From: Porphyromonadaceae bacterium
Lineage (GTDB): Bacteria; Bacteroidota; Bacteroidia; Bacteroidales; Paludibacteraceae
Assembly: GCA_012523295.1 (NCBI GenBank)
Contig: JAAYIT010000048.1
Span: 2,300-66,299, forward strand
Direction of reading: 5' to 3'
DNA length: 64,000 bases
Both the position numbers and the translations under genes were made by a program. This document shows, piece after piece, positions 389-57,313 of the stretch (position 1 is its first letter; every line of letters begins with the position of its first letter). Under the pieces are notes generated by a model that saw nothing but the letters and a program-made list of their open reading frames with translations, was not told where the DNA came from and ran no database searches.

Positions 389-480
389 TCGCATGAAACA
401 GCCATTTGAAACAAATTTTCAGCGAAACCGTATGAATATGAGTGACGTATACAATAAGGCCTTAATTTAAAAAATAAAAA
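389..480 (+). repeat. Family A ~95-nt hairpin/mini-ORF module, diverged single copy
   Basis: Starts GCATGAAACAGCCATTT and ends CCTTAATTTAAAAAATAAAA. An in-frame 25-codon ORF runs 393..470 (MKQPFETNFQRNRMNMSDVYNKALI). Confidence 0.7.
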
Positions 481-764
481 GTCTTTGTGTGAACATATAG
501 AAAGACTCTAATAAGAAATAGATAAAGTTGATTAAATACAAAAAAGAAAATAGAATAGTCATCAAAAGCTGTTCTTTTAAAGCTTTCAAGCCCATTATAA
601 TGTAGAATGATTTCATTTTGTAAATATTAAAAGCAATATTATAACATTTGACTAAATTTTATTTGGCATTTAAATAACAATCATTTATATTTGCATACTA
701 GTATTTATAATTTGTTAAAAAAAATACGAGAACAAAAGAAGATTATAAACAAAATGTTAAATTT

Positions 765-3700
765 ATGAGAAAATTAAAACTTTTATTCGCTTGTTTTTTA
801 ATAGCAAGTGTTAGTTTGGTTAGCGCTCAAACAAAAACAGCTTCCGGAGTTGTGATATCTTCCGAGGACGGTTTGCCTGTAATTGGGGCGAGCGTAGTAG
901 TGAAAGGTACCACTCAAGGGACTGTTACAAATGCAGATGGTTGGTATTCGCTCACAGTGCCGGCTTCTGAAAATACATTAGTAGTTTCATTAGTTGGGAT
1001 GCAGAGCGTAGAGGTCGCGGCCTTGCCAAACCAAAGATTAGTAATGAATCCTGCTGTTTCAGAGCTGGATGAGGTATTAGTCGTAGCTTATGGAACTTCA
1101 ACCAAAGGAACTTTCACCGGGTCAGCTGCTGTGGTTGATTCTGAGAAAATTGAAATGAAACAAATTTCAAACATTTCAAACGCGCTGTCAGGAGCAGTTG
1201 CAGGAGTTCAAACTTTAAGCGCTAACGGACAACCCGGAACATCCGCTACTATCCGTATCCGCGGTGTCGGATCCATCAACGCCGGAATGAATCCGTTGTA
1301 TGTTGTTGACGGAATTCCTTTTGACGGAGATTTGTCTTCATTAAATCCCAATGACATTGAATCATTGACAGTACTAAAAGATGCTGCTTCCACCGCCTTG
1401 TATGGAGCACGCGGAGCCAATGGGATTATAATGGTTACAACAAAAAAGGGAGCTATCGGCAAGTCAGTTGTAAATGTTGAAGCAAGATACGGTATAAACT
1501 CTCGCGCTATTAGAAACTATGATGTTTTGACAAGCCCAAAAAACTATTTGGAAACAGCATATAAAGCCATTTACAACGCCGGGATTTATAACTTAGAATA
1601 CACGCCCTACCAAGCGAACAGATATGCGAATGAAAAAATCACTTCTGAAACTGAAGGAGGTTCGGGTTATACGATTTATACAGTACCCGATGGTCAATAC
1701 TTGATTGGAAATAATGGTTTCCTTAACCCAAATGCTACTTTAGGATATAGCGATGGAACTTATTTTTATACTCCGGACAACTGGATTAATGAAACATTCA
1801 TGAATAATCCGCGTCAAGAATATAACATTTCCATCTCGGGAGGTAATGAAAGAGGACACCATTTTATTTCAGTCGGATATTTGGATGATAAAGGAGTAAT
1901 TGCCGGATCAGGCTTTTCAAGAATTTCTACTCGTTTTAACGGTGACTATAAAATTAAAAATTGGCTGAAAGTGGGTGCGAATATGAGCTATAACTATTCA
2001 AACAGCCAATATCCGGGAGAGCAAGTTACAACAAACTCTTCGGGGAACGCGTTTTTTATCGCCAATTATATTGCTCCAATTTACCCAATCTTTGTGCGTG
2101 AAAGCGCAAATCAGCAAATAATGTTAAATCAAGGACGAAAAGTATTTGATTATGGTGATGGAGTAAGTACCAACTTCTCAAGATCATTTATGTCAATTGC
2201 CAACCCCGCCGGTGATTTGGTTTACAACAAGACCAACTACCTGATGGATATAATGAACAACAGCTGGTATGCGGAAATTTCTCCTATCACGGGTTTGACC
2301 CTTACGGCTCGTTACGGACTGAATGTGGACAATACAAGATATAATGACTTAGGAAATGCATACATGGGTCAAAGCGCTTCTTCTGGAGGTACCGCATATC
2401 AAGACCAAAGTAGAATTTTTGGATTCAATCAGCAGTATATTGCCAACTATCACTACGAAATCGACAGATTGAACCTACTTGATTTTACCCTTGGATACGA
2501 TGCTTATTCATATAGATCTGAACGCGTTTTCGCATCAGGTCAAAATCTTTATAACCCCGAAAGTTACTACGTAAGTAATGCCATTGACCAGCTAAGGGGA
2601 GGAGGTTCAAAATCACTTTATGCCACAAGAGGTATTATCAGTCGAGTTAACTTTTCGCACGATGAAAAATATTTTGGAAATATATCATATCGTCGTGATG
2701 CTTCTTCCCGATTCCACCCTGATAAAAGATGGGGTAACTTCTGGTCTGCAAGCGCGGCTTGGATGATGACCAAAGAGGAATTCCTAAGTTCAGTTGATTG
2801 GCTGAGCATGTTGAAATTCAAAGCATCATTTGGCCAGCAAGGTAACGATAATATAGGCAATTATTATGCCTATCTGGACCAATACCGCATGACTGGAGCA
2901 GAAGGCGTATTTGCTGACGGAGCGATTGTGTATAAAGGAAATCCGGATATAACTTGGGAAACTTCTACTTCTTATAACATCGGATTTGATTTCGGGCTGC
3001 TAAATAATACACTGACAGGTAGCTTGGAGTATTTTGGCAGAAAATCAGCGGACATGTTATACAATAAACCTACAGCAGGAAGTTTAGGATACACATCAAT
3101 ACCGATGAACGTTGGTTCGATGACAAACTCCGGTTTAGAATTGGATTTGAATTACAACGTATTCAATACTGTAGCGATTGATTGGAATGTGTTCGCGAAT
3201 GCAACCTTAATTAGCAATAAAATCAATAAGTTGCATCCCGACCTTCAAGGTAAACTGATTGATGGCAACAGAATTTACGAAGAGGGTTATTCTATGTACC
3301 GGATGTATCTTGTGGAGTATGCCGGAGTGAATCCTGAAACCGGAATGGCGGAATATTGGAGTGACGGAGAGTTTGGCGAACGCATCAAAACAGACGATTA
3401 CTCTGTAGCGGTAGACCATAAAATTGCAACCGACAATTTGCTTCCTAAAGTATATGGAGGTTTTGGAACTTCTATTGCCTCATATGGTTTTGATGCCGCT
3501 GTTCAGTTGTCCTATCAGCTTGGTGGAACAATTTATGACAGTGGGTATGCTAGATTGATGCATGGCGGAATCACAAGTTATGCTGGAACAAACTGGCACA
3601 AAGACATTTACAATGCATGGACTCCTGAGAATACGAATACTGATGTACCTCGTCTAAATGCGAATGACAAATATGCGAACTCAACTTCAACTCGATTTTT

Positions 3701-3932
3701 AATAAGTTCTAATTACCTGAGTTTGAATAATATCGTGTTTGGTTATACTGTTCCAATTCAAAAGTTAACCAATCTTGAGATCAGTAAATTAAGAGTTTAC
3801 ATAGTAGCTGATAACGTGGGAATTATTTCCGCGCGTAAAGGTTTAGACCCACGTCAAAGTTTTACGGCAGCAACAACCGCGCTATATACTCCGATTCGTT
3901 CAATATCCGGAGGTGTTAGTTTATCGTTTTAA
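765..3932 (+). CDS. SusC/RagA-family TonB-dependent outer-membrane receptor
   Basis: 1055-aa ORF with a signal peptide and an N-terminal carboxypeptidase-regulatory-like segment (GVVISSEDGLPVIGASVVVKGTTQGTVTNADGWYSL). Plug motifs are present (DEVLVVAYGT, IESLTVLKDAASTALYGARGANGIIMVTTKKG). The long barrel ends in F, and a SusD-like gene follows. Confidence 0.9.
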   Translation: MRKLKLLFACFLIASVSLVSAQTKTASGVVISSEDGLPVIGASVVVKGTTQGTVTNADGWYSLTVPASENTLVVSLVGMQSVEVAALPNQRLVMNPAVSELDEVLVVAYGTSTKGTFTGSAAVVDSEKIEMKQISNISNALSGAVAGVQTLSANGQPGTSATIRIRGVGSINAGMNPLYVVDGIPFDGDLSSLNPNDIESLTVLKDAASTALYGARGANGIIMVTTKKGAIGKSVVNVEARYGINSRAIRNYDVLTSPKNYLETAYKAIYNAGIYNLEYTPYQANRYANEKITSETEGGSGYTIYTVPDGQYLIGNNGFLNPNATLGYSDGTYFYTPDNWINETFMNNPRQEYNISISGGNERGHHFISVGYLDDKGVIAGSGFSRISTRFNGDYKIKNWLKVGANMSYNYSNSQYPGEQVTTNSSGNAFFIANYIAPIYPIFVRESANQQIMLNQGRKVFDYGDGVSTNFSRSFMSIANPAGDLVYNKTNYLMDIMNNSWYAEISPITGLTLTARYGLNVDNTRYNDLGNAYMGQSASSGGTAYQDQSRIFGFNQQYIANYHYEIDRLNLLDFTLGYDAYSYRSERVFASGQNLYNPESYYVSNAIDQLRGGGSKSLYATRGIISRVNFSHDEKYFGNISYRRDASSRFHPDKRWGNFWSASAAWMMTKEEFLSSVDWLSMLKFKASFGQQGNDNIGNYYAYLDQYRMTGAEGVFADGAIVYKGNPDITWETSTSYNIGFDFGLLNNTLTGSLEYFGRKSADMLYNKPTAGSLGYTSIPMNVGSMTNSGLELDLNYNVFNTVAIDWNVFANATLISNKINKLHPDLQGKLIDGNRIYEEGYSMYRMYLVEYAGVNPETGMAEYWSDGEFGERIKTDDYSVAVDHKIATDNLLPKVYGGFGTSIASYGFDAAVQLSYQLGGTIYDSGYARLMHGGITSYAGTNWHKDIYNAWTPENTNTDVPRLNANDKYANSTSTRFLISSNYLSLNNIVFGYTVPIQKLTNLEISKLRVYIVADNVGIISARKGLDPRQSFTAATTALYTPIRSISGGVSLSF

Positions 3933-3952
3933 TGATATAGAATAAAATAAGA

Positions 3953-4153
3953 CTATGAAACAGCCATTCAAGATAAGTTTTAAATGTAAGATAATGTCCC
4001 GATATCTATCGGTAGGCGTGTTCCATAAGTCCTTAATGTAAAAAATAAAATTATTCGTATGAAACAGCCATTAAAAGCAAATTTTCACCTAAACGTATGA
4101 AAATGAATGGCGTATTCCATACGACCTTAATGTAAAAAATAAAATTTTTTCGT
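3953..4153 (+). repeat. Family A module, two tandem units between the susC-like and susD-like genes
   Basis: Units lie at about 3953..4055 and 4056..4153. The second ends AATAAAATTTTTTCGT directly before the ATG at 4154. Confidence 0.85.
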
Positions 4154-5755
4154 ATGAAAATAAGAAATTTAATATTAACTACAACCATCCTCGGATTACT
4201 TTTTGTTAGTTGTAACGATTTGGATACTTACCCGGAAGGATCGATAGTAACTACTAATCAAAAAGAGGAGGTTTATGAGCTGAATCCGGCACAAACAGCA
4301 GCCGGTGTAAATGGAATTTTTGCTCAATTTAATCAGTTTATGCCTAACGAATCGGCATTAGGTGCTGAGCGTCACAATGACTTTGGTTATCCATCTATTA
4401 TGATGTTTACAGATGCCAATGGGATGGATATGATTACTGAAGATAATGGATATAACTGGGCAGGATTCAACCTGAATTTCTCTGACAGGATTTATACTTC
4501 AAATGAAACCCAGATTGTTTGGAATAATTTGTATGCGATCATATTTACGGCAAATAATGTAATCGGACCAATTGATCCTGAAACTGATATTGCTACAAAT
4601 CAATATTATTTAGGACAAGGGTTAGCGGCAAGAGCTTTTGCTTATTTTAATTTAGCACAACTCTTTCAATTTAATTATGTAGGAAATCAAGGCAAACCTT
4701 GTGTTCCTATAATTACAAATGAGAACTCGAATGAGGCAGCATTAAGTGGAGCACCCAGATCTACGGTTGAAGAAGTCTATACATTGATTCTGAATGATAT
4801 TAATAAAGCGATTGAATTGCTCGATGCAGCCGAAAGTGCAGGAGTAACGCGTAAAGACAAACGATATATCAGTTTGGCTGTAGCCTATGGACTCCGTGCC
4901 AGAATACATTTAACTATGCAAAAATGGCCCGAAGCGGCAGCAGATGCCACAAATGCAATTGAAAAGTCTGAAGCAAAACCGGCAACCATAAAAGATGTGA
5001 GCGGACCCTCTTTTTCAAGCGCGGCAGAAAAAAACTGGATGTGGGGTATTATTATTGCTGAGACAGACAGGGTAGTTACATCCACTATTGTAAACTGGAT
5101 TTCACACATGGGATCACTTAACTACGGTTATGCCAACTTTTCAAAAGGACGCCAAATCAATAAAGCATTATTTAACTCTATTCCCGAATCAGATGTTCGC
5201 AGAGGTTGGTGGTTAGATGAAGAGATGTATTCTAAGCATTTAAATAAAGAACAAAACGATTGGATGAACAAGTATTATTCCGGTTATACTCAAGTTAAAT
5301 TTGCACCCTATAAAAATGAAGTAGGCAGCACTACCAACGCGACTGATCTTCCTCTTATGCGTATTGAAGAAATGTACTTGATTAAAGCTGAAGCAGAAGC
5401 TATGAGCGGAGGCGCGGGTGCAGCTACTTTAGTAAGTTTTGTAAAAGAATTCAGAGATCCTGGATATGAATTTACGGCAACAAGTCCTCAGGCAGTTCAA
5501 GAAGAAGTCTTTCGCCAAAGAAGAATTGAATTGTGGGGTGAGGGGTTAAGCTGGTATGATATTATGAGGTTAAATAAACCTGTAGATAGACGTGGCGCAG
5601 GATTCCCTAATGCCCCCATGGTGTTTAACATACCGGCAGGAGATCCTATACTATTATGGAGAATACCCGAAGCTGAAATTCAAGCAAACCCTGCATTGAA
5701 TGAAGAAGACAATAATGAATCAGCGCCGGCACCAACTCCGGTTCCTGATTTATAA
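4154..5755 (+). CDS. SusD/RagB-family nutrient-binding outer-membrane lipoprotein
   Basis: 533 aa with a lipoprotein signal (LLFVSCND). It sits immediately downstream of the SusC-like gene and has typical SusD segments (LRARIHLTMQKW, RRIELWGEGLSWYDIMR). Confidence 0.9.
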   Translation: MKIRNLILTTTILGLLFVSCNDLDTYPEGSIVTTNQKEEVYELNPAQTAAGVNGIFAQFNQFMPNESALGAERHNDFGYPSIMMFTDANGMDMITEDNGYNWAGFNLNFSDRIYTSNETQIVWNNLYAIIFTANNVIGPIDPETDIATNQYYLGQGLAARAFAYFNLAQLFQFNYVGNQGKPCVPIITNENSNEAALSGAPRSTVEEVYTLILNDINKAIELLDAAESAGVTRKDKRYISLAVAYGLRARIHLTMQKWPEAAADATNAIEKSEAKPATIKDVSGPSFSSAAEKNWMWGIIIAETDRVVTSTIVNWISHMGSLNYGYANFSKGRQINKALFNSIPESDVRRGWWLDEEMYSKHLNKEQNDWMNKYYSGYTQVKFAPYKNEVGSTTNATDLPLMRIEEMYLIKAEAEAMSGGAGAATLVSFVKEFRDPGYEFTATSPQAVQEEVFRQRRIELWGEGLSWYDIMRLNKPVDRRGAGFPNAPMVFNIPAGDPILLWRIPEAEIQANPALNEEDNNESAPAPTPVPDL

Positions 5756-5777
5756 CTTAACATTTTAATTAGCAAAC

Positions 5778-6062
5778 GTTATGCAACAGTCATTAAAAGC
5801 AAATTTTCACCCTAACGGTATGAAGATGAATGGCATGTTCCATACGACCTTAATGTAAAGAATAAATTTTAATCGTATGAAACAGCCATTTAAGACAAAT
5901 CTTAAACCCAAGAGAATGGTTAATGGCGTGTTCCATACGACCTTAATGTAAAGAATAATATTTAATCGTATGAAACAGCCATTTAAGAACAGTCTTAAAC
6001 CTAAGGAAATGATTAATGGCGTGTTCCATACGTCCTTAATGTAAAGAATAAATTTTAATCGT
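5778..6062 (+). repeat. Family A module, three tandem units between the susD-like gene and the third PUL gene
   Basis: Units lie at about 5778..5873, 5874..5966 and 5967..6062. The last ends AATAAATTTTAATCGT directly before the ATG at 6063. Confidence 0.9.
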
Positions 6063-8042
6063 ATGAAAATAATAAATTTAATAAAAGTAGTTTTTCTTAT
6101 CGCTGTAGTTACGCTTGCTTCTTGCAAGGACTATGTGGATATTGAAAAAACAAGTCCTGAGATTCAGGCAGGGAATCAAGGAGTCTTTTTTCCTGAAAGT
6201 AATCAAAGTGCGTTTGAGCTGGAGCCAACCGAGCCTACTCAAATCCAATTGACTATTGCTCGTAGTGTGTCTGCCGGAGCAGTTGAAATTCCCATTACTG
6301 TAGATGTAAATGAAAATGATGTGTTTCAAGTTCCTGCTACAGTAAGTTTTGCGGATGGTGAAACCGAAAAAGAGATAACCATTAATTTCCCGACTGCCGG
6401 TGAAGGGGTTACTTACCCATTACGAATATCAGTTTATGGAGATCAATATGTAAATCCTTATTCTGATGGCGTACCATATGTTGAGGCTACTGTTACTCGT
6501 ATTAAGTGGGTACCTGTAGATGAACCAATGGTATATGTAGATGGTCCTTTTGTCAATGTGTGGCTTCAGGCGCCATATGCAATGTATGTTAATGCAGAAA
6601 AAGCTGAATTGGGAGATGTAGTTCGTTATAGATTTAAAAATATGTTTAAACCAAGAACAGCTCCTGCTGATGAAGATGGTATAAATAATGGGTTCGTGAA
6701 TCAGGATCCGGGTTTTCATGGCGATAAAGATTGGTACACCATTATTGAAATTGCAGATTCGGCAGGTATGGAAGGAGAGGTGTTTATGTTTGCCCGGGAA
6801 ACCGGAGTAGAATGGGGATCTTACGGTATGATTTCAATAGGTTCGATTTACAGAAACTTTCTCGATAGAAAGAAAGAAGATTTTCCATTAGGAACATTAA
6901 AAGATAGCGTAATTACATTTCCTCCGAAAAGTCTATATTTTAGAGATAAAGATGGTGTTATTCCTTCGAGTGCTCCTGCTTACATCTATATGAGTAAAGA
7001 ACATTTCATTGCCGCAAACAAGAAAATCACAGATTTTAATAAAGTTGAGTATGAAGATATTCTCGGAGCTGTAAGTGAATATCATTCTGCAGCGTATAGT
7101 GATAGCTGGAACGCGATAATTGCAAAAGCTATCGATATTGATTTAGAAAATGAAAAAAGTGACTATAAGAACTTGTATTATTTGTCAAATCTTTATGCTG
7201 ATGATAATGGTTTAGCATTCTACTATGCTGATGGCGGAAGAGTAAGAATCCCTGATAATCAGCCCATTGGCAAAAAGATATTTGGAAAAGACATCTATGT
7301 GTCTCAGAGTGATTCAATTGAATCTTCAGTGGAAGTGAATGACAAAGGGGTAACAGTTTATACACTTGGATTGTTGTTCCATTATGAGGATGGGACAGTA
7401 CTTGGCCACTTTGCCGAAAAATTCTTTTATTCTGAAGATCCGGTAGCGTATGATAAAGCTGATTTCATAGGGAAATTTAAAATGACCGGATTAAGTCAAT
7501 TGGGTGAAGATGACTTAGATAAAGAGGTAAATATAGCAGAAGGTGCTCACCCGGATACACTCATCATTACCGGCATTCCGTATGCTGAAGAAGTAAAAGC
7601 TGCTTTTGATGAAACTACAAGCACTATGTCCATTGCTTCTCAAGCATTAGCTGATATAGTAGCTAATGGCGAAACCTATGATATGAGTTTAATAAACACC
7701 GATGAAGATGGGATGAATAGTGAAGCCATTATGGAGTTTACTTTCAATATGGAAGGAAAACTTGTCATGTCCTCAACGAGCACCAGTGATGGATATGTGA
7801 TTCGCAGTGTTGCTGCCGGAGGCTTTGTGTCAGGATTTTATAATATAGTTTTCACAAAAGTTACTTCAACTCCAGCGCCTATTTCATCTAGAATAATGAG
7901 TAATACAAAAATAAAGTTACAATCTTCGAAACGTATTGTAAAGAAAACTCAAGTTAAAGCAGGAACACACAATTTTAAGATTCAAGGTAAAAAATCACCT
8001 GTGAACATGAAAAAGAATGTTTCTACAAACTTTATTTTTTAG
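6063..8042 (+). CDS. PUL-associated surface lipoprotein of unknown function
   Basis: 659 aa with a lipoprotein signal (VVTLASCKDY). It is the third gene of the susC/susD cluster; I recognise no catalytic motif. Confidence 0.6.
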   Translation: MKIINLIKVVFLIAVVTLASCKDYVDIEKTSPEIQAGNQGVFFPESNQSAFELEPTEPTQIQLTIARSVSAGAVEIPITVDVNENDVFQVPATVSFADGETEKEITINFPTAGEGVTYPLRISVYGDQYVNPYSDGVPYVEATVTRIKWVPVDEPMVYVDGPFVNVWLQAPYAMYVNAEKAELGDVVRYRFKNMFKPRTAPADEDGINNGFVNQDPGFHGDKDWYTIIEIADSAGMEGEVFMFARETGVEWGSYGMISIGSIYRNFLDRKKEDFPLGTLKDSVITFPPKSLYFRDKDGVIPSSAPAYIYMSKEHFIAANKKITDFNKVEYEDILGAVSEYHSAAYSDSWNAIIAKAIDIDLENEKSDYKNLYYLSNLYADDNGLAFYYADGGRVRIPDNQPIGKKIFGKDIYVSQSDSIESSVEVNDKGVTVYTLGLLFHYEDGTVLGHFAEKFFYSEDPVAYDKADFIGKFKMTGLSQLGEDDLDKEVNIAEGAHPDTLIITGIPYAEEVKAAFDETTSTMSIASQALADIVANGETYDMSLINTDEDGMNSEAIMEFTFNMEGKLVMSSTSTSDGYVIRSVAAGGFVSGFYNIVFTKVTSTPAPISSRIMSNTKIKLQSSKRIVKKTQVKAGTHNFKIQGKKSPVNMKKNVSTNFIF

Positions 8043-8332: not shown

Positions 8333-8557
8333 TAAATAACGTAAGTTCGAAATAAGAATTTATTTATTTCATTGGTAAATAAGGTAATAAGCTATATGTC
8401 AATATGTATTTCAATACTATTAAGGTTTGTATAGAGAAAATAAGGAACCTTAATAAAAAATGACACAGAATAAATCTCAACCTTATTACCTTATTGCAAA
8501 TCAATCTCATAAATCTAAATATTGTTTTTTGGTTATATCGAACTCACGTTAAATAAT
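8333..8557. repeat. Family C palindromic MITE-like element, variant copy
   Basis: Terminal inverted repeats are AAATAACGTAAGTTCGAAAT / ATATCGAACTCACGTTAAAT. Inside are mirrored ATAAGGT / TTATTAAGGTT / AACCTTAATAA / AACCTTATTACCTTATT motifs. Confidence 0.7.
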
Positions 8558-8571
8558 GTTTTTCTTAGAAT

Positions 8572-8700
8572 GGGACTAACCGCTTCAAGACGGTTTGTCC
8601 CGTTGTCTAACGATGTAAATAGGCAACCATCCCGAATATCGGGATGGTTACGGTGTAACAATTCAAAATTGCAACAAATAGGAATGATTGCGGAAGATTA
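8572..8700 (+). repeat. Family B-prime double-hairpin repeat, copy 1
   Basis: Near-identical to 15801..15930. It contains GGGACTAACCGCTTCAAGACGGTTTGTCCC, then CAACCATCCCGAATATCGGGATGGTTACGG, and ends GATTGCGGAAGATTA. Confidence 0.8.
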
Positions 8701-15776: not shown

Positions 15777-15800
15777 AGGATTATAATTTATTTTTAGATT

Positions 15801-15930
15801 GGGACAAACCGCTTCAAGTCGGTTTGTCCCGTTGTCTAACGACGTAAATATGCAACAATCCCGAATATCGGGATGGTTGCGGTGCAACAATTCAAAATTG
15901 CAACATATAGGAATGATTGCGGATAATCAT
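15801..15930 (+). repeat. Family B-prime double-hairpin repeat, copy 2, in the rpiB upstream region
   Basis: Contains GGGACAAACCGCTTCAAGTCGGTTTGTCCC, then CAACAATCCCGAATATCGGGATGGTTGCGG, and ends GATTGCGGATAATCA. Near-identical to 8572..8700. Confidence 0.8.
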
Positions 15931-20306: not shown

Positions 20307-20578
20307 TTGGTCAATGAAATATGTTTGAACTTTTGTCGTTATTAATATGAATTATCTACAAAAGTAAGAAAATAAACTATTCTAAGGGACTGTTTCGAAA
20401 AAAAATAGATGAAAATATACGTTTTTCAAAGAAAGTGAGTTAATTTAAAAGCTTGAAGTCAGAAGACCGAAGTATAGACAGAATAAAGTTTGAATTTTAG
20501 TTGTTGAAATCTCTTACCCATTTAATTCAGAAATTTTTATCATTTCTTATAAATGAATTTTGGCTTTTAGCATCTTAA

Positions 20579-20893
20579 ATCTAAATATCTTGTATCTAAA
20601 AATCTTGTATCTAAAAGTCTTGTATCCAAATATCTTATATCTAAAAATCTTGTATCTAAAAATCTTATATCTAAAAATCTTATATCTAAAAATCTTGTAT
20701 CTAAAAGTCTAATATCTAAAAATCTAATATCTAAAAGTCTTGTATCTAAAAATCTAATATCTAAATATCTTGTATCTAAAAATCTTATATCTAAAAGTCT
20801 AATATCTAAAAGTCTTATATCTAAAAGTCTAATATCTAAAAGTCTAATATCTAAAAGTCTTATATCTAAAAATCTTGTATCTAAATATCTCTT
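20579..20893. repeat. 15-bp minisatellite, 21 units, abutting the gldJ-like start codon
   Basis: The unit is ATCTAAA[AA/AG/TA]TCT[TG/TA/AA]T. There are 21 head-to-tail units with no spacers, ending 7 nt before the ATG at 20901. Confidence 0.95.
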
Positions 20894-20900
20894 AAAAAAT

Positions 20901-22493
20901 ATGAACAGAAGTAGTGTGATAAAATTAGCAAGTTTTATTTTTCTAATCATTTTTATTGCATCTTGCGCGCCAAGGAGACAAAATAACGATGCTCAGCCAC
21001 CGCCTCCGAAGGGTTCATCAGTTTCAACAGCTACCGGTTGGACATATCAGAATGAGAATTTCTCCGGTGGAACAGGTTATGCGTCAGCCGGATTTGCTGC
21101 ACAGGAAAATTACAAACCGCAAATTCCATCCGGAATGGTTGTTGTGGAAGGTGGTACTTTTACAATGGGTGAAAAAACTGATATGATTACTGCCCGGCGG
21201 GACAATTTGTCCCGCCGAGTTACGGTTGGTTCTTTTTATATGGATCAGTACGAAGTCAGTAACCTGATGTGGCGCGAGTACACGCACTGGATGGATGTGG
21301 TTTTCGGTGAAGTTGCACCAAGATTGGTTAATCAGGCGCAGCCGCACGTAAATAAAGCGAGCGATCCGTTGACTTACAATGAACCTTACTATGACCGTTA
21401 TTACACGCACCCGGCATTTAATCATTATCCGGTGGTAGGAGTTACGTGGGAGCAGGCAATGGATTATTGCCAATGGCGAACTGACAGATTGAACGAGCTG
21501 GTATTGGTAAAAGCAGGAGTTTTAGCTCCACCCGATTTTTCGTATGTTCAGCGTGTAGCTAATTTGGACTCAATTTCACAAAATTTCGTGTTTAATACGG
21601 AAAAATATCTACTACAACGCTCATACAACCCGCCAATGGGACCAAAACCGCTTCAAGGCGCTTTTGGAGAGCCTCGAAAAGCGCAAATGGGTGATGGATT
21701 GATGTTTCCTAACTTCAGACTGCCCACTGAAGCCGAGTGGGAATTTGCGGCGTATGGGCTAAAAGCAGATAAGAACGGACTTGTTGCTGAAGGCAGGTTG
21801 TATCCGTGGACGGGCAATCGACTCAGAGATAAGAGCAAAGGAAAAAATCAGGGACAAATGCAAGCAAATTTTGTCCGTGGGCGCGGCGATATGATGGGAA
21901 CTGCCGGTGACCTGAACGACAGATTTACCACAACAGCACCGGGTAATGCCTATCCGCCAAATGATTTTGGGCTTTATAACATGGCCGGAAATGTAAATGA
22001 GTGGGTGCTTGACGTGTACCGCTCTACATCGCATCAGGAAGTGGCTGATTATAACCCTTACAGAGGAAACCAAGGTTATACCTATTTGGCAGAATCTCAA
22101 ACCGAAAACGGTGGATATAACTTGAAAGTGGATTCACTCGGAAGGATAGCTCGCGTAGTGTTGCCGGAAGATGATATGCGTAGTTACAGGGATGGTACTA
22201 ATCAGATAGCAACCGATTTTCAGCTCTATACAGATCCGGAAGGAGTGTCTGCACTAAGAAACAGATCACAATTAGACCCAACCGACGTACTCGCTCCAAA
22301 GATTACAAACAAAACACGAGTGTATAAAGGCGGTTCTTGGAAAGACCGCGCCTATTGGATTAATCCGGCTACGCGTCGCTATCTCGACCAAGATAAATCT
22401 GCCAACGATATCGGTTTCCGATGCGCCATGACGATGCTCGGAAGTATCGACAACCAACCGGTTACCAAGAAAAAAACATCGAGGAAGAAGTAG
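20901..22493 (+). CDS. FGE-sulfatase/SUMF1-fold lipoprotein, GldJ-like
   Basis: 530 aa with a lipoprotein signal (IIFIASCAP) and SUMF1-family blocks (YPVVGVTWEQAMDYCQW, FRLPTEAEWEFAAYG, NDFGLYNMAGNVNEWV, YKGGSWKD, GFRCAM). It stands alone rather than in a porKLMN-type operon, which favours GldJ over GldK/PorK. Confidence 0.6.
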   Translation: MNRSSVIKLASFIFLIIFIASCAPRRQNNDAQPPPPKGSSVSTATGWTYQNENFSGGTGYASAGFAAQENYKPQIPSGMVVVEGGTFTMGEKTDMITARRDNLSRRVTVGSFYMDQYEVSNLMWREYTHWMDVVFGEVAPRLVNQAQPHVNKASDPLTYNEPYYDRYYTHPAFNHYPVVGVTWEQAMDYCQWRTDRLNELVLVKAGVLAPPDFSYVQRVANLDSISQNFVFNTEKYLLQRSYNPPMGPKPLQGAFGEPRKAQMGDGLMFPNFRLPTEAEWEFAAYGLKADKNGLVAEGRLYPWTGNRLRDKSKGKNQGQMQANFVRGRGDMMGTAGDLNDRFTTTAPGNAYPPNDFGLYNMAGNVNEWVLDVYRSTSHQEVADYNPYRGNQGYTYLAESQTENGGYNLKVDSLGRIARVVLPEDDMRSYRDGTNQIATDFQLYTDPEGVSALRNRSQLDPTDVLAPKITNKTRVYKGGSWKDRAYWINPATRRYLDQDKSANDIGFRCAMTMLGSIDNQPVTKKKTSRKK

Positions 22494-22575: not shown

Positions 22576-22673
22576 CATACGGTTATATTTTATTTTTTAC
22601 ATTATGGACGTATGGAACACGCCATTAATCATATTCTTGGGTTTAAGACTTTTCTTAAATGGCTGTTTTATGC
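22576..22673 (-). repeat. Family A module, orphan copy with a mutated start (ATA)
   Basis: The reverse complement reads GCATAAAACAGCCATTTAAG...GGCGTGTTCCATACGTCCATAATGTAA. No gene follows it. Confidence 0.8.
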
Positions 22674-36057: not shown

Positions 36058-36096
36058 TAATTGATTTTTTAGTCTGACTTATAGACTTTATTATCC

Positions 36097-36231
36097 AATA
36101 TGATATAGAATTTGTCTAAAACTATTCATGGTAATTATATTTTGGAAAACTCTTATAGAGTTTGGCTTTATGTTTTATATTTTCCCCCAGATAAATCTGG
36201 GGGTTATTTATGGTTTTGTCCTACGGACATT
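36097..36231 (-). repeat. 135-bp duplicate of the RAYT 5' end plus its upstream hairpin module
   Basis: Near-identical to 36882..37016. It includes the first 11 RAYT codons (MNSFRQILYHI) and the hairpin CCCCCAGATAAATCTGGGGG at 36184..36203. Confidence 0.9.
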
Positions 36232-36375
36232 TTTTCCTGATTTTATAAATTCAAGATGCTTAATAGGAACAAAAACTTGTGCAATTCCGCTTTCTATCCC
36301 ATCTTTAATTTCTTTTTTTAGTGCTAAAATTTTATTTTTTTTCATTTTTTTTTTAACTAATTGCTGATAAGAAAT
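36208..36375 (-). pseudogene. Possible 5'-truncated ParD-like antitoxin remnant
   Basis: The translation ...QQLVKKKMKKNKILALKKEIKDGIESGIAQVFVPIKHLEFIKS resembles the C-terminal half of ParD-type antitoxins. There is no RHH half, and both ends run into repeat modules. Confidence 0.25.
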
Positions 36376-36389
36376 ACGCTGTAAGCGTT

Positions 36390-36465
36390 TCCATTGCATA
36401 ACCCCCGGATTTATCCGGGGGATTTGAGCAAGAATATGCCCAAAACTCTGTAAGAGTTTACCAAT
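36390..36465 (+). repeat. Inverted copy of the RAYT-flanking hairpin module
   Basis: The hairpin CCCCCGGATTTATCCGGGGG (36402..36421) and the flanking ...GCCCAAAACTCTGTAAGAGTTTACCA match the reverse complement of 36930..36990, with compensatory stem changes. Confidence 0.8.
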
Positions 36466-36467
36466 TA

Positions 36468-36914
36468 TCAAATTAAATATCGTTCATTCCATTCTATTCC
36501 ATTCTCGGTTAAAAGCTGTTTTAATTCATCAGCAAATGAAACTTTGCGATGGTGTTCTTTTTGATTTTTTATGTAATTGATTATTTTATTTTTGTCTTTT
36601 AGATTGTAAGTAATTGCACAATATCCTTCTGCCCATGATTTGAAATGCGGGAAAAGCCCGGAGTTTTTCATCCAAATATTAGAAGCTGTTTTTATCTCCT
36701 TGATGTAATCGGATAATGCAATCGTTGGGTGCAAATCTGATAAAATATGAATATGGTCATTAGTCCCATTAATTCTGTATAGAACACAATTTCTTTTATT
36801 AATTGTACCCCAAATGTATCTGTAAAGAGCCTCGTGATGCTCTTCTGTTAATGTTTGTTCTCTATTGTAAGTACCGAAAACAATATGATAGAGAATTTGT
36901 CTAAAACTATTCAT
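36468..36914 (-). mobile_element. IS200/IS605-family Y1 (HUH) transposase, RAYT-like
   Basis: 148 aa with YHIVFGTYNRE, an HUH motif (NDHIHIL) and downstream catalytic-Tyr-region candidates (YIKEIK ... AITYNL). It is flanked on both sides by inverted hairpin modules. Confidence 0.8.
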
Positions 36915-37016
36915 GGTAACTATATTTTGGAAAACTCCTACAGAGTTTGGTTTTATGTTTTGTGTTTTCCCCCAGATAAATCTGGGGGTTATTTTTGGTT
37001 TTGTCCTACGGACATT
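36882..37016 (-). repeat. RAYT 5' end plus upstream hairpin module (master copy of 36097..36231)
   Basis: The hairpin CCCCCAGATAAATCTGGGGG lies at 36969..36988. This segment is the 135-bp match of 36097..36231. Confidence 0.9.
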
Positions 37017-37033: not shown

Positions 37034-38122
37034 TTAATCAGCTTCAAAAAACACCCCAAACCTTTTCTCAAAACTATCAGGCAAATTCCCCCAATACGCT
37101 TTTGGTTCGCGGCGGACGGGATAGTGCGAGCGTTGACGCTCAAAAGTTTCGGGCGATGATTTTAGTAAATTGCTTTCGGTTAGAATATCGTAAGTTGTTT
37201 TGAAAAAATCATTGAAGCTCAAATCCTTGAAATCGCCGTCCAATCCTTTCGGTAATTCGGACGGTTCCCAATCGTTCAATCCGAGCTTGAAAAATCGGCT
37301 GATCGAACGCACGCTTTGCTGTGTGGCATTGGCTTTGCCGTCGGCCGAATAGCCGGCTATATGTGGCGTGGCAAGCGCAACCATTCCTAACAGTTCCAAA
37401 TCGATATTCGGCTCATTTTCCCAACAATCCAGCACCACATCCGACACCAACCCCGCATTTATGGCATTTTTAAGCGCTTGATTGTCCACCACTTCGCCAC
37501 GAGAAGCATTGATAAGAATGGGTTTCCGTTTCAAAGATTGAAAGAATGCTTCGTCCGCCAAATGATACGTTTTATCAATGCCTTCAAAATGCAGGAACGG
37601 GTGAAACGCGATGATATCGGCTTGTACCGCCACATCATTCAGGGAAACGAATTCGGTGTTTCCTTCTGTGCGGGCGCGTGGCGGGTCGTTGATCAACACG
37701 TTCATTCCAAACGCTTTGCAAAGTTTCGCCACACGTGAGCCCACATTCCCTACGCCCACAATTCCGATGGTTTTCGAGCGTAAATCGAAACCGTTCTTTT
37801 CGGCTAAATAAATCAACGTCGAAGCCATGTATTGCGTTACGGAAAGCGCGTTGCAACCGGGAGCATTCGCCCATTTTATATCATTATTGTCACAATACTT
37901 CGTGTCAATATGATCGTAGCCGATGGTAGCAGTAGCGATGAACTTTACTTTAGAACCTGCGAGTAATTTCTCGTTGCACTTGGTGCGAGTGCGGATTATC
38001 AGGGCATCGGCATCATGCACTACTTCAGGTGTCATCTCCTTGTAAGTGAGATACTTTACTTCTGCTATATTGTCTAATGCTCCTTGAATATAAGGTATGT
38101 TTTTATCGATTATTATTTTCAT
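37034..38122 (-). CDS. pdxB: 4-phosphoerythronate dehydrogenase
   Basis: 362 aa, starting MKIIIDKNIPY. It has an NAD-binding motif (GIVGVGNVGSRV), a D-2-hydroxyacid dehydrogenase core (INASRGEVVD, TPHIAGYS) and a PdxB-type C-terminal dimerisation domain. Confidence 0.85.
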   Translation of the reverse strand: MKIIIDKNIPYIQGALDNIAEVKYLTYKEMTPEVVHDADALIIRTRTKCNEKLLAGSKVKFIATATIGYDHIDTKYCDNNDIKWANAPGCNALSVTQYMASTLIYLAEKNGFDLRSKTIGIVGVGNVGSRVAKLCKAFGMNVLINDPPRARTEGNTEFVSLNDVAVQADIIAFHPFLHFEGIDKTYHLADEAFFQSLKRKPILINASRGEVVDNQALKNAINAGLVSDVVLDCWENEPNIDLELLGMVALATPHIAGYSADGKANATQQSVRSISRFFKLGLNDWEPSELPKGLDGDFKDLSFNDFFKTTYDILTESNLLKSSPETFERQRSHYPVRREPKAYWGNLPDSFEKRFGVFFEAD

Positions 38123-38262
38123 ACGATTAAATATTATTCTTTACATTAAGGTCCTATGGAACACGCCATTAACCATTTTCTTGGGTTTAAGATTTATCTT
38201 AAATGGCTGTTTCATACATTTTATGTTTATTTTTCACATTAAGGGTTCCATACGTTTTATGT
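38120..38262 (-). repeat. Family A module (one full unit plus a partial unit) fused to the pdxB start codon
   Basis: The reverse complement reads GTATGAAACAGCCATTTAAGATAAATC...GGCGTGTTCCATAGGACCTTAATGTAAAGAATAATATTTAATCGT-ATG(pdxB). Confidence 0.85.
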
Positions 38263-41872: not shown

Positions 41873-41943
41873 GGTACCTTGGCCGAGTGGTTAGGCACCG
41901 GTCTGCAAAACCGTCTACAGCGGTTCGAATCCGCTAGGTACCT
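41873..41943 (+). tRNA. tRNA-Cys (GCA)
   Basis: A 71-nt cloverleaf with acceptor GGTACCT/AGGTACC, anticodon loop CTGCAAA and T-arm AGCGG-TTCGAAT-CCGCT. CCA is not encoded. Confidence 0.9.
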
Positions 41944-56788: not shown

Positions 56789-56904
56789 TTTTTCCCGAAT
56801 GAATTTTCAGGCAAAAAGATTAAAAACAGAAAAGCACAAAAGGTGGAAAATAAAAATTAGTTGTGCGTTCTATTTTTAAGCTTTAATTCCCGAAAGCGTT
56901 AAAT

Positions 56905-57175
56905 AATGTATGATTTTGGCAGGTCTTCTGACTTAAACCTATCATCTGCAACCCTTCCCAACCCAGCCTCCAAAATCCCGCAAGTGGGACTATTATGCCT
57001 CTATGAAGAGATGGAGTGCTTAAGTCAGTGGTTTTTGGTGTTTTTTTTGCAGACGTTCCCAATTCCCCTTCTTTGCGGGGTTAGGGAGGCTATTACAGCT
57101 ACGGGTATAGTTCAGGATTTTCACCTGATTCCCTTTTCATCGCGCATTCCGAAGTGAGTGGAATGAGCGACACCA
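56905..57175 (-). promoter_or_regulatory. Cobalamin (B12) riboswitch
   Basis: The minus strand reads GAAAAGGGAATCAGGTGAAAATCCTGAACTATACCCGTAGCTGTAAT (conserved core) and, downstream, GGTTTAAGTCAGAAGACCTGCC (B12-box-like). It ends about 125 nt upstream of the btuB ATG. Confidence 0.8.
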
Positions 57176-57313
57176 AATTATCACGATGCAAAGGTAGTCT
57201 ATTTTTTGTTGGATAAGAAATTTTGAAGAGGAATATTATGTTAAAAGCCTAATTTGGCGAGAGGAGGATTATTGAATTGGACAATGTCTCAATACGGATT
57301 TCCATGAAGTATT

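Follow-up and report, generated by a model that had tools for sequence, protein, structure and literature searches.

A small repeat of Bacteroidales that probably inserts directly before ATGAAA start codons

We describe family A, a repeat widespread in Bacteroidales, which fills both gaps of a susC/susD/lipoprotein operon and which is probably a small (~93 nt) non-autonomous Bacteroidales element that integrates directly before ATGA(A)(A), in practice before ATGAAA start codons, in the orientation of the gene behind. Family A looks like selfish DNA, and not like a built-in regulator of the operon. A first-pass annotation of the window, by which we mean the whole 64,000-nt stretch that was analysed (contig JAAYIT010000048.1 of a Porphyromonadaceae bacterium), had suggested among other readings a mobile module that targets start-codon contexts, and it is this reading that is favoured by three pairs of filled and empty sites, a dispersed family that breaks assemblies, strict orientation, mosaic arrays and polar decay.

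Results

Repeat units occupy both gaps of the operon

The susC-susD gap of the window measures 221 bp and the susD-gene 3 gap 307 bp, and they are occupied by five family A units of 93-104 nt, two in the first and three in the second, every one of which ends flush with the following ATGAAA. This arrangement of tandem hairpin units had been described in the first-pass annotation, and it was confirmed by measuring from ATG to ATG, by nhmmer and by Tandem Repeats Finder, which reported an array at 5825-6068 with a period of 93 nt, 2.6 copies and 90% matches. Eight copies had been counted in the window and an nhmmer profile search found exactly eight; two conserved family A motifs have seven matches each in the window, with chance expectations of 0.00 and 0.21. 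The unit opening that had been taken as common to all is exact in three of the five operon units (CGTATGAAACAGCCATT) and fails in unit 1, which reads ACTATGAAACAGCCATT, and in unit 3, which reads GTTATGCAACAGTCATT. The features of the operon are listed here with unit boundaries given from ATG to ATG, the real starts being at 4154 (susD) and 6063 (gene 3).

765..3932, + strand: susC-like TonB-dependent transporter gene (Pfam CarbopepD_reg_2, Plug, TonB_dep_Rec_b-barrel)
3933..3954, + strand: retained ancestral susC-susD spacer, TGATATAGAATAAAATAAGACT, which aligns with the full 20-22-nt orthologue spacer TTGTATAAAATAGGATAAGATT
3955..4058 (nhmmer 3950-4067), + strand: unit 1, 104 nt, with the decoy ATGAAAC first and an additional inner hairpin, CCGATATCTATCGG
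4059..4153 (nhmmer 4055-4161), + strand: unit 2, 95 nt, subtype 'b' (from sequence and nhmmer)
4154..5755, + strand: susD-like gene (Pfam SusD-like_3 / SusD_RagB)
5756..5780, + strand: retained ancestral susD-gene 3 spacer, CTTAACATTTTAATTAGCAAACGTT, which aligns with the complete spacer TGTTACATTTTAAATATCAAGACGTT of locus L045
5781..5876 (nhmmer 5776-5885), + strand: unit 3, 96 nt, subtype 'b' (from sequence and nhmmer)
5877..5969 (nhmmer 5878-5977), + strand: unit 4, 93 nt, subtype a1 (from sequence, motif and fold)
5970..6062 (nhmmer 5972-6070), + strand: unit 5, 93 nt, subtype a2, its end flush with the gene 3 start
6063..8042, + strand: gene 3, a 659-aa predicted lipoprotein (…LASCKD) without a Pfam family

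The small ORF of unit 2 is frameshifted, and the end of this unit, ...TTTTCGT, adjoins the susD ATG. Unit 3 is the most decayed of its array (ATGCAAC, AGTCATT). The parts of unit 4 are a left arm (5874-5890), a right arm (5922-5939) and a tail (5940-5969), the last with an AUG-UAA at 5946-5951 and a conserved CGT at 5967-5969.

The other family A features of the window lie outside the operon.

393..485 (nhmmer 386-494), + strand: decayed copy, ~280 nt upstream of susC (nhmmer E=8.7e-6)
22579..22671 (nhmmer 22674-22571), - strand: solo copy, intergenic, with no gene behind (from nhmmer)
37034..38122, - strand: pdxB, the gene behind the following copy
38123..38215 (nhmmer 38219-38115), - strand: solo copy flush with the pdxB start codon (from nhmmer)
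38216..38254, - strand: what is left of an older unit, without its hairpin, CGTATGGAAC + CCTTAATGTGAAAAATAAACATAAAATGT, adjoining the pdxB solo copy on its upstream side

No ATG follows the tail of the decayed copy, and its fold is not better than that of shuffled sequences (z=+0.22). The decoy start of the copy at 22579..22671 is mutated to ATA, and what follows its tail, ATGAAATGTCGGCATTAG, is a 5-codon ORF. GC skew over the 64 kb follows gene orientation, with no origin or terminus visible.

The units are absent from orthologous loci

In orthologous operons (SusD identity 74-79%) the susC-susD gap is 20-22 bp, which agrees with the earlier statement of a usual spacing of tens of bp, and 21-26 bp separate susD from gene 3. 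The first 22 nt of the susC-susD gap and the first 25 nt of the susD-gene 3 gap in the window align with these ancestral spacers, and the order at each site is ancestral spacer, ATGAAA, units, and then ATGAAA with the gene. The susD start, ATGAAAATAAGAAAT, is native sequence, orthologue starts reading ATGAAAATAAAATAT. At L045, the closest relative (79% SusD identity), the susD-gene 3 site is empty and the spacer leads directly into ATGAAAATT; the L045 contig breaks directly before susD, inside an apparent unit tail. The third pair is at pdxB, where the sites of two orthologues (L092 and L094) are empty and begin with ATGAAAATAAT, the same as the gene start in the window. The flanks of the arrays are collinear with the orthologues. 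Judged from these alignments, the family A units are insertions relative to orthologous loci, with three filled/empty site pairs.

Family A is dispersed and adjoins gene starts

Our census comprised 108 arrays, of which 87 were single, 20 double and one triple, with 130 copies in all, from Paludibacter-, Proteiniphilum- and Dysgonomonadaceae-type genomes and one metagenome; since the loci were fetched by exact-motif search, it is biased towards intact copies. The motif is carried by 44 loci in ~17 species-level genomes, many of them at contig ends, and in one metagenome 69 copies lie within 353 kb. It can be seen that all copies are co-directed with the downstream gene and that the ATG after the tail opens an ORF of at least 50 aa in 81 of the 108 arrays (at least 75%), several others being cut by contig ends; the loci fetched thus show a start-codon bias, for which a genome-wide census had been proposed. 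Of the 857 ATGAAA hexamers that these loci contain, only ~72 begin a long ORF. The genes behind family A are functionally unrelated (rpmH, rpmJ, fabD, lpxB, pdxB, a murG-like gene and many lipoprotein genes), and 42 of 93 arrays are at operon-internal junctions, with an upstream same-strand ORF ending within 120 nt. Some copies are without a gene behind, namely that at 22.6 kb in the window and those at L003, L038 and L041.

The 3' side of every copy adjoins ATGA(A)(A) in one orientation, a fixed short target, and such insertion at a fixed hexamer in a fixed orientation points to a site-specific mobilisation mechanism. The same hexamer, ATGAAA, is always found on both sides of a unit, but it is imperfect in at least eight copies (left ATGAAAC with right ATGAAT, ATGAGA or ATGAAG) and is therefore probably not a simple target-site duplication; going by these sequences, an ATGAAAC end that belongs to the element itself, with insertion before ATGA, fits better. 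Different subtypes precede rpmH in two Proteiniphilum species (L017 and L035), family A stands before the same gene in two Flavobacterium genomes (L009 and L014), and 45-nt tails are identical between Proteiniphilum species. A plasmid collection (blastn, distant mode) and viral contigs gave no family A match, and the literature searched, of limited coverage, contained no prior description in Bacteroidetes.

Arrays are mosaics that decay away from the gene

Adjacent units were 79.7% identical and random pairs 80.0% (p=0.90), and the gene-distal unit was the lower-scoring, more decayed one in 19 of 22 adjacent pairs (p=0.0009). The five operon units fall into four subtypes, of which 'b' is found in both gaps and at other loci. 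Because of the mixed subtypes, the lack of extra likeness between neighbours and the polar decay, which puts the oldest unit farthest from the gene, we favour repeated independent insertion at the gene start codon over local duplication, and on this sequence comparison the two- and three-unit arrays of the operon are most likely successive independent insertions at the susD and gene 3 start codons. Polar decay could, however, also mean stronger selection on the gene-proximal unit.

A hairpin is predicted to bury the decoy AUG

The inverted repeat is as the first-pass annotation described it, with one mismatch (A.C) and one bulge (a G), and it folds; the z-scores against shuffles of the seven good copies were -3.8 to -0.95. 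Burial of the unit ATG in the stem had also been predicted, and thermodynamic folding supports it: in partition-function folds of both whole gaps the probability of being unpaired was 0.00-0.04 for the unit AUGs and 0.65 and 0.62 for the real AUGs. The hairpin is thus predicted to bury the decoy AUG while the real AUG stays mostly open. It is AT-rich, ~64 nt long, with an ATGAAAC foot, and forms in ~23 of 26 representatives; a second stem is lineage-specific (AGCCATT/AATGGC(G)T, GCATGC/GCATGC, GCATTT/AAATGT, TCAC/GTGA or CCT/AGG). The proposed structure pairs in 91.5% of cells, compared with 26-37% in slid controls. Covariation, another check that had been proposed, did not rise above that of shuffled controls among the 45 copies of the window-type subfamily, since these stems show hardly any variation; compensatory differences across lineages are qualitative only. 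RNAalifold chose a CCAUACG/CGUAUG pairing that spans the real start, and single folds switch between the decoy and the real AUG. The right arm, AATGGCGTGTTCCATACG, which is complementary to the decoy, and the terminal CGT are both near-invariant.

The tail is 30 nt long and A-rich (CCTTAATGTAAA...AATCGT) and runs up to the ATG of the gene itself. Of 117 tails, 89 contained stops in all three frames, as against 69 of 398 ordinary upstream regions. The base at -3 is C in 108 of the 117 tails whereas the favoured base at this position in Bacteroidetes is A (PMC6847099), and for this reason the CGT appears to be conserved for a role other than translation efficiency.

No terminator-like site was present in the units on the operon strand, and an Rfam search over the region, at the gathering threshold and at E<=10, left the units without a match. 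Sigma-70-type sites numbered 6 where 9.0 were expected, by a consensus that does not apply to Bacteroidetes, and TTTG...TAnnTTTG had no conserved occurrence in the unit by eye. Copies inside operons would have no need of a promoter.

An ORF from the unit ATG to a common TAA is kept in 53 of the 89 units examined. In window-type units it crosses the hairpin and stops at a TAA that lies 18 nt short of the next AUG, with lengths of 24, 25, 28 and 29 codons; in most Proteiniphilum-type and other lineages it is broken or cut to MKRA*, while hairpin, tail and start-codon position are retained. By inspection, variable sites fall in loop positions of the RNA or DNA and not preferentially in third codon positions.

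No mobilising enzyme was linked to family A

There was no transposase or recombinase linked to family A in the loci examined, the diverse downstream genes including no transposase, and no longer parent element with the same ends was present in ~750 kb of fetched loci, where the right-arm motif otherwise occurs only by chance, within genes. The window has a single Y1_Tnp gene.

36468-36914: Y1/HUH transposase gene, IS200-like, with the subclass 1.2 signature YIKNQKEHH

Although this gene is only 1.1 kb from the pdxB copy, we rejected it as the mobiliser, as its flanks (CCCCCAGAT..ATCTGGGGG) are unrelated GC-rich palindromes; it is without relatives in other family A loci. The family A motifs were also absent from the REP tables for Bacteroidetes RAYT subclass 2.6 (PMC6006769).

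Discussion

How a start-codon-targeting repeat might work

In the mechanism that we propose, the left end of the repeat, ATGAAAC, would copy the target and so form a decoy start codon, the right arm of the long imperfect hairpin would pair with this decoy, and the tail, which would usually stop all three frames, would end on the ATG of the gene. We infer that insertions are tolerated at gene starts through self-insulation: the hairpin would keep the decoy AUG out of sight, ribosomes arriving from upstream would meet stops in the tail, and the unstructured A-rich leader would re-present the real AUG, while insertions at the far commoner internal ATGAAA sites may be purged by selection. A recombinase or transposase acting in trans might recognise the invariant right arm together with the conserved ACG...CGT pair, both of which may be able to pair with either copy of the target. 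Any effects on the ratios of SusC, SusD and lipoprotein would then be side effects. Against a mobile repeat stand the lack of a linked transposase or recombinase and of classical terminal inverted repeats. The near-invariant right arm and CGT, the identical 45-nt tails and the sharing between the two Flavobacterium genomes could equally mean a host function, and the start-codon bias could stem from benefit and not from purging.

A bolder form of this proposal, possible though doubtful, is that family A homes to start codons and recognises its target through base pairing between nucleic acids, the right arm …GTTCCATACG serving as an 'anti-start' guide. The partner of this arm would be either the ATGAAAC end of the element or, when the terminal CGT takes part, the target ATGAAA junction, and both junctions would thereby be shown in equivalent alternative hairpins, which would be more stable on the bottom strand, where G.T takes the place of A.C. 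These hairpins might be the substrate of a recombinase that is specific to single strands (HUH/Y1-like) or otherwise depends on a guide, and if new copies could enter at no ATGAAA but the unpaired, gene-proximal one, the polarity of the arrays would be explained. Such an element would combine guide-based targeting with a built-in translational insulator, in which the decoy AUG is masked, stops lie in all three frames and a new leader follows, a combination for which we know of no precedent among described bacterial repeats.

Alternative explanations

Family A could instead be a cis-regulatory RNA module of the host, its hairpins being selected parts of the mRNA that tune the output of susC, susD and gene 3, perhaps as processing or stabiliser sites or as translational insulators or couplers, and that spread because they are useful. 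The units lie inside a co-oriented operon and would for that reason be transcribed with it, a right arm that is nearly invariant, like the CGT, can pair with either the decoy or the real AUG, and 42 of 93 arrays are at operon-internal junctions. The window-type ORF is moreover kept across length variants, and its TAA 18 nt before the next AUG would allow termination-reinitiation coupling. Initiation in Bacteroidetes is also known to be tuned by mRNA structure near the start (PMC6847099). We nevertheless consider such a module unlikely. Orthologous operons work without any unit; a terminator-like site, an Rfam family and subfamily covariation above shuffles are all absent; and the suggestion in the first-pass annotation of an operon-specific device that sets stoichiometry accordingly found no support, family A standing also before unrelated genes. 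The downstream genes have no common functional theme, some copies have no gene behind, the run-through ORF is not kept in other lineages (MKRA* and others), and decayed units pile up upstream as would be expected of junk, unlike a tuned device. The units may still have a secondary effect on operon expression.

It is very unlikely that the arrays are local minisatellites, in which one founder was multiplied in place by slippage or unequal crossing-over, as in MIRU-type VNTRs, with no transposition. A head-to-tail array with a regular 93-nt period and a copy number of 1 to 3 among loci would suit this explanation; however, neighbours are no more alike than units of different loci (0.797 vs 0.800, p=0.90), for which reason we rejected local duplication as the origin of the arrays, four subtypes are found among only five operon units, with 'b' in both gaps and elsewhere, and family A is present at more than 100 unlinked sites.

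That the units are tandem genes for micro-proteins of ~24 aa (MKQPFKxxLKPKxMxNGVFHTTLM) is scarcely credible, even with the ORF reaching the common TAA in 53 of 89 units and its length variants of 24, 25, 28 and 29 codons all in frame. In most Proteiniphilum-type and other lineages only a broken ORF or MKRA* is left, and as the ORF is not kept outside the window-type lineage we rejected a conserved peptide. Conservation of the C-terminus simply reflects that of the right arm and tail, folding predicts a buried start codon, and variation by inspection is in loop positions with no third-codon-position preference. Finally, family A breaks many MAG contigs, but the chance that the arrays are collapsed or chimeric repeats is negligible: in an independent assembly (L052), made from the metagenome of an anaerobic digester, the whole of window positions 3652-6240 (2,589 bp) recurs with 100% identity. 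Both arrays lie in this stretch and are therefore not an assembly artefact of this contig, and the flanks are collinear with orthologues.

Comparison with known repeats

The closest analogues of family A are Neisseria REP2, Borrelia IR-A and the mycobacterial MIRUs. Neisseria REP2 (CREN) and the IR-A of Borrelia plasmids are dispersed repeats of ~100-150 bp with internal stem-loops and no terminal inverted repeats, and they lie immediately 5' of ORFs, taking in the ribosome-binding region and the ATG (PMC3184786). Family A likewise adjoins ORF starts, with ORFs of at least 50 aa beginning at the ATG that closes at least 81 of the 108 arrays. It differs in that REP2 and IR-A carry a promoter and a Shine-Dalgarno sequence, whereas family A has no recognisable promoter motif, sits inside operons, belongs to a different phylum, one not using SD sequences, and has no sequence similarity to them; it also forms head-to-tail arrays, with the start hexamer duplicated and the decoy hidden in a hairpin. 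MIRUs are 40-100 bp long, intergenic in polycistronic operons, co-oriented with the genes, often tandem and provided with small ORFs; their ends coincide with codons of the flanking genes, and empty and filled sites suggest insertion (PMC3184786). Family A is similarly tandem, co-oriented and in operon gaps (both gaps of susC/susD/gene 3), but MIRU ORFs overlap the flanking stop and start whereas the family A ORF starts 22-25 nt after the stop and ends 18 nt before the ATG, MIRU arrays vary by local copy number whereas those of family A are mosaics of unrelated subtypes, and a long hairpin and a fixed hexamer target set family A apart.

IS200/IS605 elements insert beside a fixed short sequence in one orientation, with an internal guide that pairs with the cleavage sites, and Bacteroidetes carry Y1 subclasses with atypical hairpin partners (PMC6006769). 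REP/REPIN-RAYT and IS200/IS605-derived elements have neither classical TIRs nor TSDs, and family A resembles them in being hairpin-based, non-coding, high-copy and without classical TIRs. REP/REPIN sequences are, however, short GC-rich palindromes with a GTAG/CGTC foot, while family A is a single long AT-rich hairpin with a 30-nt tail and has no such foot, no inverted doublets and, in the window, no RAYT gene flanked by it. Elements of the IS200/IS605 type (PATE) insert beside a fixed sequence of 4-5 nt in one orientation and leave no duplication; family A likewise always adjoins one short sequence and points one way, and its left 'duplicate' acts as part of the element. That type has distinct subterminal hairpins at both ends, which a TnpA (Y1) recognises, whereas family A has one hairpin, and no cognate TnpA was found. 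A link of family A to an HUH enzyme is speculation.

Classical MITEs (Correia/NEMIS, ERIC, RUP and the P. gingivalis MITEs) have terminal inverted repeats and short TSDs and insert in either orientation at AT-dinucleotide or loose targets. Family A is like them small, non-autonomous and intergenic, with an RNA hairpin and presence/absence differences, MITEs being co-transcribed with their neighbours. It is unlike them in its strict orientation, in adjoining one hexamer that is the start codon, and in an inverted repeat that links the left end to a subterminal arm and leaves the last 30 nt without a pairing partner. Rickettsia palindromic elements are selfish palindromes whose insertion into expressed sequence is made tolerable, but these insert in frame in coding regions and are translated within the host protein, whereas family A lies outside the ORF and would block read-through. 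Integron attC sites are imperfect hairpins with an extrahelical base and RYYYAAC/GTTRRRY cores; the family A arms mismatch these cores and the copies precede core genes, and we rejected this identity.

Significance

Family A affects annotation through false small ORFs, miscalled N-termini and MAG contigs that break at it, and it bears on how 'unusual' PUL intergenic regions are read. Bacteroidetes lack Shine-Dalgarno pairing and normally deplete extra AUGs near starts. The repeat bears on start-codon selection in such a phylum, and offers a natural experiment in which a decoy AUG, an AUG-UAA start-stop and C at -3 have been placed before more than 100 genes; as a compact, portable 'insulating leader' it is also a candidate genetic part. 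If our interpretation is correct, a selfish repeat would now provide the translation-initiation region, in place of the native one, of many Bacteroidales genes, including housekeeping genes (rpmH, rpmJ, fabD, lpxB and pdxB) and those at internal junctions of PUL operons.

Tandem hairpin units fill both gaps of the susC/susD/gene 3 operon

The operon genes and family-A copies in the window are as follows.

765-3932, plus strand: susC-like gene (Plug and TonB barrel domains)
4154-5755, plus strand: susD-like gene (SusD Pfam domains)
6063-8042, plus strand: lipoprotein gene (gene 3), 659 aa
3955-4058 and 4059-4153, plus strand: family-A units of the first gap, ATG to ATG
5781-5876, 5877-5969 and 5970-6062, plus strand: family-A units of the second gap, ATG to ATG
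280 nt upstream of susC: decayed family-A copy
22.6 kb and 38.2 kb, minus strand: family-A copies

The first-pass annotation had described tandem hairpin units filling both gaps of this operon (221 bp between susC and susD, 307 bp between susD and gene 3), and this description was confirmed. Tandem Repeats Finder detected a 93-nt period at 5825-6068, two conserved unit motifs each had seven matches in the window against 0.00 and 0.21 expected, and a profile made from the copies found exactly eight of them, namely the five units of the two gaps, the decayed copy ahead of susC and the two minus-strand copies. The arrays are not an assembly artefact, as 2,589 bp spanning both are identical in an independent assembly of an anaerobic-digester metagenome.

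Each unit opens with ATGAAAC and the left arm AGCCATT; about 32 nt of variable apical sequence separate this arm from an almost invariant right arm, AATGGCGTGTTCCATACG, and a 30-nt A-rich tail, ACCTTAATGTAAAGAATAAATTTTAATCGT, closes the unit. Directly after the tail comes the next ATGAAA, from another unit or from the gene. Folding reproduced the arm pairing proposed earlier, with one A.C mismatch and one bulged G, and in 45 aligned copies the proposed structure paired 91.5% of cells, against 26-37% with slid partners. The covariation to which the earlier annotation had looked for support of the stem did not exceed shuffled controls within the window-type subfamily (45 copies; 55 of 500 shuffles reached the observed level), because the stems barely vary; the subfamily data are compatible with the hairpin fold, though covariation does not prove it. 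The outer stem ATGAAAC/GTTCCAT does not change between lineages, and the second stem differs while staying complementary (AGCCATT/AATGGC(G)T, GCATGC/GCATGC, GCATTT/AAATGT, TCAC/GTGA, CCT/AGG), which speaks qualitatively for maintenance of the hairpin itself. Of 26 representatives, 21 folded more stably on the bottom strand, since G.U replaces A.C.

Comparison of filled and empty sites

SusD homologues with 74-79% identity were placed on their contigs and the gaps measured. The orthologous operons have only 20-22 bp between susC and susD and 21-26 bp between susD and gene 3. The first 22 nt after susC in the window, TGATATAGAATAAAATAAGACT, align with the whole orthologous spacer TTGTATAAAATAGGATAAGATT, and are followed by ATGAAA, two units and then ATGAAAATAAGAAAT, where the orthologues read ATGAAAATAAAATAT. 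After susD, the first 25 nt likewise align with the spacer of L045, the closest relative, over its whole length; in L045 gene 3 begins ATGAAAATT directly after the spacer, the second site being empty. The L045 contig opens 21 nt ahead of susD, and its first bases, …AAATTTTAATCGT, resemble the tail of a unit. At pdxB, orthologues (76-78%) read …GAA followed by ATGAAAATAATAATCGAT with nothing inserted; in the window, and in a 98% variant that comes from the same digester project, this site holds a unit and a hairpin-less remnant. The element lies exactly between spacer-plus-ATGAAA and the gene's own ATGAAA. Judged by the three filled/empty pairs (susC-susD, susD-gene 3 and pdxB), the gene starts are native and the ancestral spacers survive upstream. 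These alignments show that the family-A units are insertions relative to the orthologous loci.

The flanking ATGAAA is no clean target duplication: at least eight copies keep ATGAAAC on the left but have ATGAAT, ATGAGA or ATGAAG on the side of the gene. More likely, the element brings its own ATGAAAC end and joins before ATGA…, which resembles site-specific or single-strand 'no-duplication' insertion.

Formation of the arrays

Neighbouring units are 79.7% identical, compared with 80.0% between loci (p=0.90), and the gene-distal unit is the poorer match to the family profile in 19 of 22 adjacent pairs (p=0.0009). The five operon units represent four subtypes, with subtype 'b' in both gaps and at other loci, and rpmH carries different unit subtypes in two Proteiniphilum species. 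We therefore rejected slippage and unequal crossing-over, since adjacent units are no more alike than inter-locus pairs and subtypes are mixed; together with the distal decay, these sequence comparisons argue for one independent insertion after another at the start codon of the gene, each of which would push older copies upstream. An alternative reading of the polarity is stronger selection on the gene-proximal copy.

Hairpin-less 'solo tails' were seen directly upstream of intact units (window 38216-38254, minus strand; 2636-2677 of L069, a locus from outside the window), with the left arm or ACG joined straight to CCTTAATG…CGT. Such remnants suggest that older units lost their palindromic part cleanly.

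A dispersed family at start codons

An exact 19-base motif (right arm plus tail) was searched in species-representative genomes, giving 44 loci, mostly in Proteiniphilum, other Dysgonomonadaceae and Paludibacter(aceae) MAGs, with single matches in Petrimonas, Massilibacteroides and Azobacteroides, plus two Flavobacterium genomes. Many matches lie at contig ends, as expected because repeats break assemblies. The window-type motif was found at 38 metagenome loci, all from one project and without synteny to the window (69 copies in 353 kb). All sources together gave 130 copies in 108 arrays (87 single, 20 double and one triple, the last being the second gap of the window).

The start-codon bias anticipated for copies outside the operon was borne out: the tail's ATG opens an ORF of at least 50 aa in at least 81 of the 108 arrays, and a same-strand ORF ends within 120 nt upstream in 42 of 93, placing these inside operons. 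Downstream genes include rpmH, rpmJ, fabD and lpxB, carB-, murG-, fabG- and accC-like genes, SusC/SusD homologues and many lipoproteins; no transposase was among them. Only about 72 of 857 ATGAAA hexamers in the family-A loci start long ORFs, so the hexamer alone falls well short of explaining the association with start codons. This bias reflects either extended target recognition or, more simply, the loss of harmful insertions elsewhere.

In a different class, Flavobacterium sp. HSC-61S13 (L009) and Flavobacteriaceae UBA1682 (L014) carry a family-A-like unit (ATGAAATC[G/A]CC … GTGATTCCATATGTCCTTAATGTAAAAT…ATG; arms with compensatory changes) before one shared outer-membrane-type gene, MKKNLLSIAFLMGAGAMYAQ…; it may be an old conserved leader or a product of horizontal transfer. 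The gene from 1311 onward at locus L027 begins ATGAAACGAGCATC…, identical to a family-A left arm, and the call for a pdxB relative at L096 (1501-2703) runs 40 aa too far into the upstream region, in which no family-A unit was identified. Start-site calls near these elements should be treated with caution.

Predicted effect on the gene start

Partition-function folding of the two gaps leaves the decoy AUGs at the left ends of the units paired (P unpaired 0.00-0.04) and the real start codons at 4154 and 6063 open for the most part (0.65 and 0.62). Of 117 tails, 89 have a stop in each of the three frames no more than 33 nt from the start, compared with 69 of 398 ordinary upstream regions, and an AUG-UAA start-stop is conserved within tails. 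Position -3 is C in 108 of 117 tails, and A is commonest in controls. Work in Flavobacterium johnsoniae has shown that Bacteroidetes initiation proceeds without Shine-Dalgarno pairing and is tuned by mRNA structure, with A at -3 favoured and extra AUGs near starts depleted (PMC6847099). With its extra AUGs and its C at -3, the element therefore breaks local rules while masking or neutralising those AUGs. As an explanation of the conserved CGT, complementarity to the ACG that follows the right arm is preferable to an effect on translation efficiency. No terminator-like site was found in the units, and so read-through of the operon is expected.

A general leader module selected by the host is a possible but less favoured reading; it would fit the invariant right arm, the tails identical across species, the pairing that toggles between decoy and real AUG, and the run-through ORF of window-type copies, which stops 18 nt before the next AUG; however, decayed copies pile up upstream and some copies have no gene. 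A regulator specific to this operon, including the stoichiometry-setting device proposed in the first-pass annotation, is unlikely because orthologous operons lack units and the unit is generic; of the two readings offered there, it is the mobile element aimed at start-codon contexts that is supported. A micro-protein family is also unlikely, as in other lineages the 24-aa ORF is cut down to MKRA* or another short ORF, the remaining architecture being kept.

Candidate mobilisation systems

36468-36914, minus strand: Y1/HUH transposase-like gene, 148 aa (PF01797, E=2.8e-22)
36095-36235, 36397-36426 and 36969-36988: flanks of the Y1/HUH gene

The roughly 750 kb of locus DNA searched contained no longer element sharing family-A ends, and family A had no plasmid or viral matches. 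The Y1/HUH gene is inserted between pdxB and a PBP4-like gene; in orthologues the latter lies 50-370 bp after pdxB with no called gene between. Its protein motifs DHIH and YIKNQKEHH match subclass 1.2 (Quentin et al. 2018), a little-studied group restricted to Cyanobacteria and Bacteroidetes with no known hairpin partners and reported to lack IS-like ends (PMC6006769). We rejected this gene as the family-A mobiliser, since the hairpins on its flanks, CCCCCAGAT..ATCTGGGGG, bear no relation to family A and are confined to that single locus. The GC-rich palindromes that flank it read CCCCCAGATnnATCTGGGGG and CCCCCGGATnnATCCGGGGG, and downstream is a partial duplicate of the left end and the 5' part of the gene.

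Family A bears a resemblance, and a resemblance only, to guide-based single-strand systems in its single orientation, the fixed short sequence that it abuts, an internal arm complementary to both junctions and the stabler bottom-strand fold. Several defining features of IS200/IS605 and REP/RAYT are absent from it.

Other repeats and features

8553-8694 and 15783-15923, plus strand: repeat family B, about 142 nt
L080 9653-9798, L055 13254-13409, L087 5198-5336 and L060 8629-8764 (metagenome loci): repeat family B
20572-20890: 15-nt tandem repeat ATCTTATATCTAAAA, about 21 copies, 88% matches
41873-41943, plus strand: ordinary tRNA
56901-57192, minus strand: cobalamin riboswitch (RF00174, 76.9 bits), upstream of a minus-strand gene cluster

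Family B copies are 84-92% identical, contain two hairpins, GGGACTAACCGCTTCAAGACGGTTTGTCCC and AACCATCCCGAATATCGGGATGGTT, and are preceded by sequence like the Bacteroidetes -33/-7 promoter (TTTG … TAGATTG). At three of the four metagenome loci family B precedes a family-A array by 23-64 nt, both having the same orientation (B, A, gene). It had no Rfam match at E<1, and could be a small RNA, a leader or a further mobile module. Another hairpin element of about 80 nt (ACTAAAGTTAGAC…) is nested in the right arm of Proteiniphilum-type family-A units at Proteiniphilum/Dysgonomonadaceae loci L002, L012, L018, L025, L030, L032 and L043, always at AGTTC, which is repeated on both flanks; it is a second site-specific small element with family A as its landing site. 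The 15-nt tandem repeat lies just upstream of, and overlaps, the start of an FGE-sulfatase-domain gene (20901-22493).

Relationship to known elements

The nearest described elements are Neisseria REP2 and Borrelia IR-A, which lie immediately upstream of genes and cover the ribosome-binding region and ATG, and mycobacterial MIRUs, which are oriented, often tandem, located in operon intergenic regions, contain small ORFs and touch the flanking genes with their ends (PMC3184786). Family A is set apart from these by a decoy start masked by a hairpin, a tail with stops in all three frames, a fixed ATGA(A)(A) junction, mosaic polar arrays and its occurrence in another phylum. No earlier description of it was found in the literature searched. 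We class family A with the small non-autonomous intergenic repeats that reach the start codon, and its proposed self-insulating design would let an insertion at that codon be tolerated.
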